DNA from: Candidatus Hadarchaeales archaeon
Lineage (GTDB): Archaea; Hadarchaeota; Hadarchaeia; Hadarchaeales; Hadarchaeaceae
Assembly: GCA_038872135.1 (NCBI GenBank)
Contig: JAVZGN010000003.1
Coordinates: forward strand, 18,683-82,682
DNA: 64,000 nt
Direction of reading: 5' to 3'
The position numbers were made by a program, and so were the translations under genes. The notes under the pieces are model-generated. The model was not told the origin of the DNA. It searched no databases and saw only the letters and a program-made list of their open reading frames with translations. Shown piece by piece: positions 13,916 through 49,162 of this stretch. Position 1 is the stretch's first letter; every line of letters begins with the position of its first letter.

Positions 13916-14482
13916 ATGGTAAGAGCATTTGTGGCGGTAAAAATCAGCGATGAGGTAAGGCGGAAGCTGGTGGAGGTCCAGGGGGCGCTGGCAAAGGCGG
14001 GGGCGGAGCAGAAGCTGGTAGAACCGGAAAATCTACATCTCACGCTGAAATTTCTCGGGGAGGTGCAGCAGGAAAAAATTAGGAGGATTGCAGAGAAGGT
14101 GAGCGAGGCTGTGGCTGGGACGGAACCCTTTGACATTCACGTGGCTGGGATAGGAGCTTTTCCCAGCATCGGCTATGCGAGGGTCGTCTGGGCCGGGATG
14201 GCTGAGGGAAGCGAAAAGGTGGCGGAGGTACAGAAGAAGATAGATTCCGCTCTCACCTCCGTTGGGTTTTCGCCAGAAAGGGATTTTCACCCCCACATCA
14301 CCCTCTCCCGCGTAAAGTTCGTGAGAGAAAAGGCGAAGTTTGTCGAATTTTTGAAGGAAATGGCAAAAGCTGATTTTGGGGTTACCAGAGTCGACTCGGT
14401 GAGTTTGGAGCAGAGCACATTGACTTCAAAGGGACCCATTTATTCAACCCTTGCCAAAGTTGAGTTACAGAGCTTGCGATGA
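13916..14482 (+). CDS. thpR: RNA 2',3'-cyclic phosphodiesterase (2'-5' RNA ligase family)
   Basis: Two HxT motifs (HLTLKFLG, PHITL) and N-terminal RAFVAV. Confidence 0.95.
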   Translation: MVRAFVAVKISDEVRRKLVEVQGALAKAGAEQKLVEPENLHLTLKFLGEVQQEKIRRIAEKVSEAVAGTEPFDIHVAGIGAFPSIGYARVVWAGMAEGSEKVAEVQKKIDSALTSVGFSPERDFHPHITLSRVKFVREKAKFVEFLKEMAKADFGVTRVDSVSLEQSTLTSKGPIYSTLAKVELQSLR

Positions 14483-14523: not shown

Positions 14524-14682
14524 TGGCGCCGGGGGGAGGACTCGAACCTCCGACCGCTCGGTTGCTGCATCCGGAATGGTCAGCCTTCAGAGATGGAGGC
14601 TCGCTCTTCATCCGCTCCCGGTTTTAACAGCCGAGCACTCTACCTACTGAGCTGTCGGGCCACCCAAAGGTGGAACCCCGGC
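14524..14682 (-). tRNA. tRNA-Asn(GTT) with two introns: 21 nt at position 8/9 (14654-14674) and 62 nt at 37/38 (14563-14624); CCA encoded
   Basis: Removing both introns gives GCCGGGGTAGCTCAGTAGGTAGAGTGCTCGGCTGTTAACCGAGCGGTCGGAGGTTCGAGTCCTCCCCCCGGCGCCA, a complete cloverleaf (acceptor GCCGGGG/CCCCGGC). Both junction pairs fold into bulge-helix-bulge motifs. Confidence 0.93.
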
Positions 14683-14722
14683 ATCCCGGCACCAATTGTT
14701 TCTCAATCAAACTTCTATAAAC

Positions 14723-49072: not shown

Positions 49073-49162
49073 GGGCCGGTAGTTCAGCGGCATGAACGCC
49101 CGCTTCGCATGGTTGTCCGAAAAAGCGGGAGGTCGCGGGTTCAAATCCCGCCCGGTCCACCA
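49073..49162 (+). tRNA. tRNA-Ala(CGC) with canonical 14-nt intron at 37/38 (49110-49123); CCA encoded
   Basis: Acceptor GGGCCGG/CCGGTCC with G3:U70; CCCGC-TTCGCA[TGGTTGTCCGAAAA]A-GCGGG; BHB with TTCG/CGAA central helix. Confidence 0.95.

Follow-up and report, generated by a model that had tools for sequence, protein, structure and literature searches.

The stretch of DNA analyzed here, referred to as the window, comprises 64,000 nucleotides of a Hadarchaeales MAG (contig C3, positions 18683-82682). The source genome has 1.08 Mb in 34 contigs with 50% GC, and is an estimated ∼91% complete. The window carries a tRNA-Asn(GUU) gene on its minus strand at positions 14682-14524, and all parts of the gene described below lie on that strand. 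Exon 1 (14675-14682) contains tRNA positions 1-8 and reads GCCGGGGU (GCCGGGGT in the DNA-sense reading). It is followed by a 21-nt intron at site 8/9 (intron 1, 14654-14674; UCCACCUUUGGGUGGCCCGAC, DNA TCCACCTTTGGGTGGCCCGAC) with a strict hBHBh' motif of 3-4-3 geometry. Exon 2 (14625-14653; AGCUCAGUAGGUAGAGUGCUCGGCUGUUA, DNA AGCTCAGTAGGTAGAGTGCTCGGCTGTTA) contains positions 9-37, comprising the D arm, the 5' strand of the anticodon stem and the anticodon GUU. A second intron of 62 nt at the canonical site 37/38 (intron 2, 14563-14624) was recognized from the ARAGORN intron call, direct reading of the sequence and conservation among orthologues. Exon 3 (14524-14562) contains positions 38-76, ACCGAG...CCCCGGC-G-CCA, with the CCA encoded.

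A heptamer, GCCGGGA (14684-14690), is found upstream of exon 1, separated from it by a single U. It copies the 5' acceptor strand, GCCGGGG, and is called the leader decoy. The pairing of the decoy can be extended through 14694, as UGGU of the leader can pair with G73-C74-C75-A76. A TATA-like promoter box, TTTATAG (14716-14722), was read from the sequence 25 nt upstream of the decoy.

Upstream of the tRNA gene is a phosphopantothenate synthetase gene, and relatives with and without the intron share this synteny. On the other side a plus-strand ORF (13916-14482), convergent with tRNA-Asn, encodes a LigT/2'-5' RNA ligase-family phosphoesterase (PF02834, 122.7 bits). The preliminary description of this DNA, made from the sequence alone, noted the thpR gene and supposed that its adjacency might be coincidence. 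Using tblastn, a LigT/ThpR gene was found beside tRNA-Asn at 0/29 related loci, and the adjacency is seen only in the source genome. Because the neighbor is not syntenic at any of these loci, the adjacency is regarded as coincidence and a functional link between tRNA-Asn and LigT/ThpR was rejected.

The insert at 14674-14654 had been described as a strict bulge-helix-bulge (BHB) motif, and the motif is exactly as described. Its central helix is formed by C3G4G5G6 and the CCCG located at the 3' terminus of the intron. The bulges are G7 U8↓U on the 5' side and A C↓A9 on the 3' side (arrows, cuts). The intron helix is CCACC/GGTGG with a UUUG loop, and the outer helix, G1C2/G10C11, has just 2 bp and uses D-stem nucleotides. 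The BHB is the minimum-free-energy (MFE) fold of the isolated 32-mer.

ARAGORN found nothing in the unspliced tRNA-Asn DNA, and the Rfam tRNA model matched the raw gene at model positions 9-63 only (30.8 bits versus a threshold of 29). Standard tRNA finders thus overlook the gene, so genomes of the phylum can seem to be without tRNA-Asn. After the 21 nt were deleted, ARAGORN identified a tRNA-Asn(gtt) with the 62-nt intron at 37/38, in keeping with the earlier claim of a two-intron tRNA. Deletion of both introns in silico gave a perfect 76-nt cloverleaf tRNA-Asn(gtt), in which U8 and A9 are present and the acceptor stem has 7 bp (ARAGORN). In silico, then, cuts after the second base of each bulge restore U8-A9 and a perfect tRNA, as had been proposed. 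Intron 1 is a member of the known class of non-canonical archaeal BHB introns, and we infer that it is spliced at 8/9 from the motif, the orthologues and the enzyme set.

The orthologous tRNA-Asn gene was recovered from 50 related genomes, 21 with the 8/9 intron and 29 without it. In the 21 Hadarchaeales genes, which belong to families f1, f2 and f4, the insert is 15-21 nt long. An identical BHB frame was found in 17/17 orthologues inspected base by base, consisting of a 4-bp central helix, 3-nt bulges GU↓N and AN↓R, and an outer GC/GC helix. The central helix among these 17 is CGGG/CCCG, with a G-U pair in three variants. One relative, G024, has a single mismatch in the central helix. The intron helix differs by lineage, with at least six sequences (CCACC/GGUGG, CCG/CGG, CUGC/GCAG, CCGC/GCGG, CUGU/GCAG and CC/GG). 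In an alignment of the 19 distinct 8/9-intron sequences, standard pairs occupy 96.3% of the pair cells versus 23-40% after sliding of the partners. In three intron-helix pairs both sides have changed in a compensatory manner (10 cells), and 0/500 shuffles matched the covariation score. A survey of relatives for the same insertion with compensatory changes had been suggested as a check, and the insertion shared by 21 orthologues with three covarying pairs is its outcome. The intron is patchy inside genera, being absent from both other recovered genes of the source organism's genus, which implies repeated loss. As a separate observation, the tRNA-Asn genes of some relatives (L025, L183, L186, L189, L192, L194, L195, L199, L182 and L185) have an extra ∼28-nt D-arm intron and/or a T-loop intron, with three or up to four introns per gene among them.

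Two other explanations bear on this evidence. The gene could be a pseudogene or carry an unspliced insertion, with the real tRNA-Asn in the unassembled 9% of the genome, as a completeness of 91% would permit. The preliminary description would have read the gene as a pseudogene if spliced junction reads were missing and a separate intact gene existed; neither Infernal nor ARAGORN found a second tRNA-Asn (GTT) gene in the 91%-complete genome. The interrupted gene is also the tRNA-Asn locus in 21 related genomes, where compensatory changes preserve the BHB, the exons are perfectly conserved and the synteny with phosphopantothenate synthetase is maintained. Alternatively, the 21-nt insert could be an assembly or binning artefact, given that the source is a 34-contig MAG. 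Against this, the same architecture with different intron sequences recurs in independent assemblies from numerous studies. Because a conserved, covarying intron occurs in related genomes, the pseudogene is very unlikely and the artefact extremely so.

Intron 2 was examined as well. Its BHB has the central helix CUGU/GCAG and the bulges U A↓A and C A↓A. Within the intron are CUGA motifs, the segment CGAGCCUCC and GGAUGAAGA, which is box-C-like and conserved. Its sequence is conserved order-wide, with a near-invariant CGA(A/G)CCUC complementary to positions 50-57 of its own T stem and T loop. A box-D-like (C/A)(U/C)GA, CUGA in the source gene and ACGA in most relatives, is closed by a covarying stem and is K-turn-like. 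The flanking stem covaries in the alignment of orthologues (CAUG/CAUG, GCGCG/CGCGC, GUGUG/CACGC). In Haloferax and other Euryarchaeota, the intron of tRNA-Trp houses a box C/D guide RNA. Intron 2 resembles it in being a long 37/38 intron in which box-C-like and box-D-like motifs occur together with a segment that can pair with the tRNA it interrupts. Unlike the tRNA-Trp guide, its motifs are degenerate (AUGAAGA; ACGA in most relatives), and its complementary segment aims at the T arm, off the usual D-box spacing. Rfam C/D families scored far below threshold on intron 2, namely sR41 with 12.8 bits (threshold 54) and sR47 with 11.2 bits (threshold 40). A canonical C/D guide RNA was rejected on the basis of the degenerate motifs, the sub-threshold Rfam scores and the D-box spacing misfit. 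Intron 2 may be an L7Ae-binding or guide-like element.

We then return to the leader. A copy of the acceptor strand is found 1-4 nt upstream of G1 in 21/21 tRNA-Asn genes with the 8/9 intron versus 2/29 intron-less genes (nominal Fisher p ∼4e-12, not corrected for phylogeny and based on relatives that are not independent). Most decoys are GCCGGGG; GCCGGGA is found in the source genome and GCUGGGG, GCUGGGA and GCCGGAU are found elsewhere. In 8/9-intron genes with a recognizable TATA-like box, the box is 30-34 nt from the real G1 and ∼21-25 nt from the decoy. The usual TATA-to-G1 distance in intron-less genes is 23-29 nt. The promoter spacing thus fits the decoy, which would therefore sit at the extreme 5' end of the transcript if the start is deduced from that spacing. 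The same agreement in distance points to the decoy as the 5' end of the ancestral gene, with today's exon 1 and intron derived from duplication or insertion, a history compatible with a present function.

The same history could have left the copy without a function. Intron 1 would then be real and spliced, and the upstream copy would be a functionless leftover from the origin of the intron, be it by a short tandem duplication at the gene's 5' end or by the insertion of a ∼27-nt element starting with a copy of exon 1. A promoter box at the usual distance from the decoy, and not from the real 5' end, is in line with such an origin. So is G019, whose two perfect copies follow each other without a gap (GCCGGGGU GCCGGGGU). 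Loss of the intron is usually accompanied by loss of the decoy, the outcome expected of a single deletion, and relatives L181 and L191 of family f5 have kept the decoy, and with it the duplication, without the 8/9 intron. These decoy-only genes may represent a step toward intron gain or what remained after loss; the decoy may therefore be older than the intron or have survived it. Sequence conservation argues against a leftover. Mean between-genome identity is 90% for the decoy heptamer over three families versus 41% for the 7 nt upstream of it, and the 1-4 nt linker varies in sequence. Where heptamers have decayed, the decay is offset by pairing shifted toward the discriminator and CCA. In G004, pairing has moved to GGCGCCGG with CCGGCGCC, taking in the discriminator and CC.

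Folding energies were calculated at 37°C for secondary structure only. The duplex between the leader and the 3' end has an energy of -22.1 kcal/mol for tRNA-Asn versus -10.5 kcal/mol or weaker for all other script-detected tRNA genes of the source genome, making the tRNA-Asn leader the sole outlier among the ∼45 genes scored. Among relatives, the energies range from -17.5 to -27.1 kcal/mol for 17 intron genes versus a median of -4.9 kcal/mol for 21 intron-less genes. In the MFE fold of the source gene, the 3' acceptor strand pairs with the leader at 6/7 positions. With the native leader, the MFE folds of 17/17 genes place the 3' strand on the decoy and none forms the real acceptor stem. When the leader was replaced with poly-A, all 17 genes formed the acceptor stem (7/7 pairs) and lost the BHB central helix (0/4 pairs). 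The source gene without its natural leader likewise forms the 7-bp acceptor stem without the BHB central helix. Its ensemble probability of forming the central helix falls from 0.93 to 0.09 when the native leader is shuffled, and that of forming the real acceptor stem rises from 0.00 to 0.60. The preliminary description had pointed out that the BHB competes with the acceptor stem. Folding agrees, since the stem wins in 17/17 genes without the natural leader; what that description missed is the acceptor-strand copy upstream. The native leader makes the central helix the MFE solution in just 8/17 precursors, with a mean ensemble probability of 0.43. In these models the leader copy probably frees the real 5' strand so that the splice signal can fold. 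A BHB that is out-competed in all 17 genes deprived of their leader is difficult to reconcile with a leftover.

The fold predicted after splicing is in line with a leftover. When intron 1 was removed in silico, the nearest-neighbor model still favored the decoy helix in 14/17 relatives. In the source gene, where the decoy is weakened to GCCGGGA, the real stem was favored (0.58 versus 0.30). A decoy helix predicted to outlast splicing looks harmful rather than helpful, and with such persistence, strand exchange would have to be driven by tertiary folding, temperature or RNase P itself.

A second case was found in the initiator tRNA-Met gene of the source genome (C11:29281-29400, minus strand), which has a 17-nt strict BHB intron at 4/5. 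The gene reads ggu-AGCGGGG-agaGCUACCcuuccgu-AGCG↓AGCCUUUUGGCCUAUAA↓GGGUAGGGC. The initiator has its own, different acceptor strand, and a perfect AGCGGGG copy of it is found upstream, inside a leader hairpin. Nucleotides -2 and -1 of the leader take part in the central helix of the 4/5 intron. The decoy pairs with CCCCGCU of the 3' strand in the MFE fold. When the intron is spliced out in silico, the decoy becomes part of the leader hairpin GGUAGC/GCUACC, and the fold now contains the true acceptor stem. The initiator genes of relatives (L150-L179) have a 4/5 or 10/11 intron plus decoy, the decoy alone (L168), or neither. The Rfam RF00005 survey of relatives covered the best-scoring full-length matches. 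Recurrence of the layout in an initiator tRNA, with another acceptor sequence and at other sites (4/5 and 10/11), speaks against a functionless leftover, which we consider unlikely on the whole.

Several other tRNA genes of the source genome are described here in their own right. tRNA-Lys(CUU) (C1:83139-83235) has a 19-nt strict BHB intron at 30/31, which ARAGORN wrongly places at 34, and tRNA-Val(UAC) (C11:14332-14425) has a 19-nt strict BHB intron at 23/24, wrongly placed at 32. At 49073-49162 of the window (plus strand), ARAGORN calls tRNA-Arg(tcg); without a 13-nt 37/38 intron the gene has anticodon CGC and G3-U70 and is read as tRNA-Ala(CGC). C15:21042-21132 (plus strand) is a class II tRNA whose variable arm is long and whose D arm is Leu-like; it has A73 and the acceptor strand GCCGGGG. 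Its anticodon loop, CUCGCAA, gives the anticodon CGC, a reader of alanine codons, and CCA is not encoded. The gene may mis-decode, or it may be tRNA-like with a role outside translation.

The genome was searched for the enzymes that such introns need. One EndA catalytic-domain match was identified, a 178-aa ORF with PF01974 (115.5 bits on the genome, 114.2 bits on the protein) and PF02778. The protein aligns without gaps with the homotetrameric enzyme of M. jannaschii, 1a79 (residues 15-177 versus 10-170, E 8.6e-36). Its motifs RVYE, HSKF and HSVKKK align with RLYE, HSVY and HSVRKK, and the catalytic Tyr, His and Lys are conserved. The architecture of EndA had been named as a point to check, and this single gene, collinear with the M. 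jannaschii enzyme, is of the homotetramer type. A single gene points to an alpha4 assembly, while a second subunit could sit in the missing 9% of the genome. Homotetramer-type EndA belongs to the strict-BHB class, which needs a canonical BHB (PMC3239211, PMC5829648), and this enzyme class fits the exact 3-4-3 motif of intron 1. The genome also encodes RtcB (595.7 bits) and a full-length archaeal RNase P RNA.

The enzyme bears on another reading of the leader, in which the upstream copy is the true exon 1 and the second copy leaves together with the hairpin as a larger intron via a relaxed bulge-helix-loop. The transcript probably begins right at the first copy, and in G019 the mature sequence is the same either way, both of which suit this reading. 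In the source gene, GCCGGGA as exon 1 would create an A7-C66 mismatch, and the base after the first copy is A or G, not U8, in most relatives. The exact 3-4-3 geometry is found at the second copy only, and an M. jannaschii-like homotetramer EndA needs the canonical BHB (PMC5829648, PMC3239211). We find this reading highly improbable.

We therefore prefer the reading in which the downstream copy is exon 1 and the upstream copy is a decoy. tRNA-Asn(GUU) is probably a functional single-copy gene with two protein-spliced introns, at 8/9 and 37/38, that is processed by a decoy-assisted pathway. Transcription would begin a few bases before the decoy. In the primary transcript, the decoy would pair with the 3' acceptor strand, the discriminator and CCA. 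The real 5' strand would then be free, allowing nucleotides 3-6 to pair with the CCCG of the intron and nucleotides 1-2 to pair with G10-C11 to give the strict 3-4-3 BHB. The single homotetramer-type EndA would cleave after U8 and before A9, and also at the 37/38 BHB, and the exons would be ligated by RtcB. With the intron gone, the real 5' strand would displace the decoy from the 3' strand, and RNase P would cut off the leader including the decoy. As RNase P would remove the decoy with the leader, splicing of intron 1 would have to precede 5' maturation. The transcription start, splicing, the requirement for the decoy and strand exchange are the parts of the pathway that we infer.

Non-canonical archaeal BHB introns are known from Thermoproteales and others, with the acceptor-stem site 3/4 as an extreme example (PMC4090602, PMC4033280). 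Sites named in one review are 3/4, 20/21, 22/23, 25/26, 29/30, 30/31, 45/46, 53/54, 56/57, 59/60, 'etc.' (PMC4090602). Intron 1 is like Thermoproteales-type introns in being short, BHB-bounded, predicted to be protein-spliced, outside 37/38 and alongside a canonical intron in one gene. It differs from them in its Hadarchaeote host, the homotetramer-type EndA and a motif that is strict rather than relaxed. Within the phylum, an alpha4-type EndA alongside numerous tRNA genes with disruptions has been reported for Hadesarchaea (Kaneta et al. 2018, PMC5829648), so that non-canonical introns are already known there as a phenomenon. The tRNA set and alpha4 EndA it treats are those of Hadesarchaea YNP_N21, of the same phylum as the source genome. 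The paper gives proportions of disrupted genes only, and its text names no positions or leader element. The 'L3' insert it reports for the YNP_N21 EndA is not visible in the gap-free M. jannaschii alignment of the source EndA.

The preliminary description supposed that 8/9 might not be a reported site. In the reviews, 8/9 is not among the sites named (PMC4090602, PMC4033280), though the list ends in 'etc.'. The site is not peculiar to the source genome, being conserved across Hadarchaeales and present in other archaea. A pattern scan of public genomes identified the same gene architecture in MAGs named Hadarchaeota, Hadesarchaea and Candidatus Hadarchaeum; the scan was loose, with most matches being chance matches in GC-rich bacteria, and archaeal matches alone were used. 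Outside the phylum, the scan identified an 8/9 intron plus upstream acceptor copy in tRNA-Met genes from two MAGs, one of Nitrososphaerales and one of Bathyarchaeia, and in one tRNA gene of a Thermofilales MAG. We do not claim the 8/9 position as new, because the Thermofilales MAG has the site and the sites compared here are those that the reviews name.

The leader copy of the acceptor strand is not described in the papers on non-canonical archaeal introns, and no published account of such a decoy was found in the literature searched. A parallel is offered by the split tRNAs of Nanoarchaeum equitans and Caldivirga (PMC4090602, PMC3293823), in which leader and trailer sequence outside the tRNA is also selected for complementarity and enables a BHB. 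The flanks of split tRNAs pair mutually and build the BHB in trans, whereas in the present gene the partner of the leader is its own tRNA's 3' acceptor strand. Unlike split tRNA genes, the source gene is contiguous, and its leader would free the 5' strand by competition.

The tRNA-Asn gene is a case of an intron placed where the splice signal and the acceptor stem share nucleotides, and a conserved leader element appears to settle the competition between them. If confirmed, the decoy would be a cis-acting pre-tRNA processing element, with the transcript itself specifying the order of processing, and models of archaeal tRNA intron gain and loss would be constrained by it. It is quite possible, and we stop just short of favoring it, that a leader acceptor copy is an obligatory cis folding device, a general archaeal rule for BHB introns that borrow acceptor nucleotides (∼3-11); the cases behind this proposal are tRNA-Asn, the initiator tRNA and a few pattern-scan matches. 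If true, the rule would let such introns persist only where a surrogate strand in the leader occupies the 3' acceptor strand up to EndA cleavage. It would fix the order of splicing before RNase P by means of a one-shot RNA switch. It would also explain where acceptor-proximal introns survive, especially in lineages whose EndA accepts the strict BHB only.
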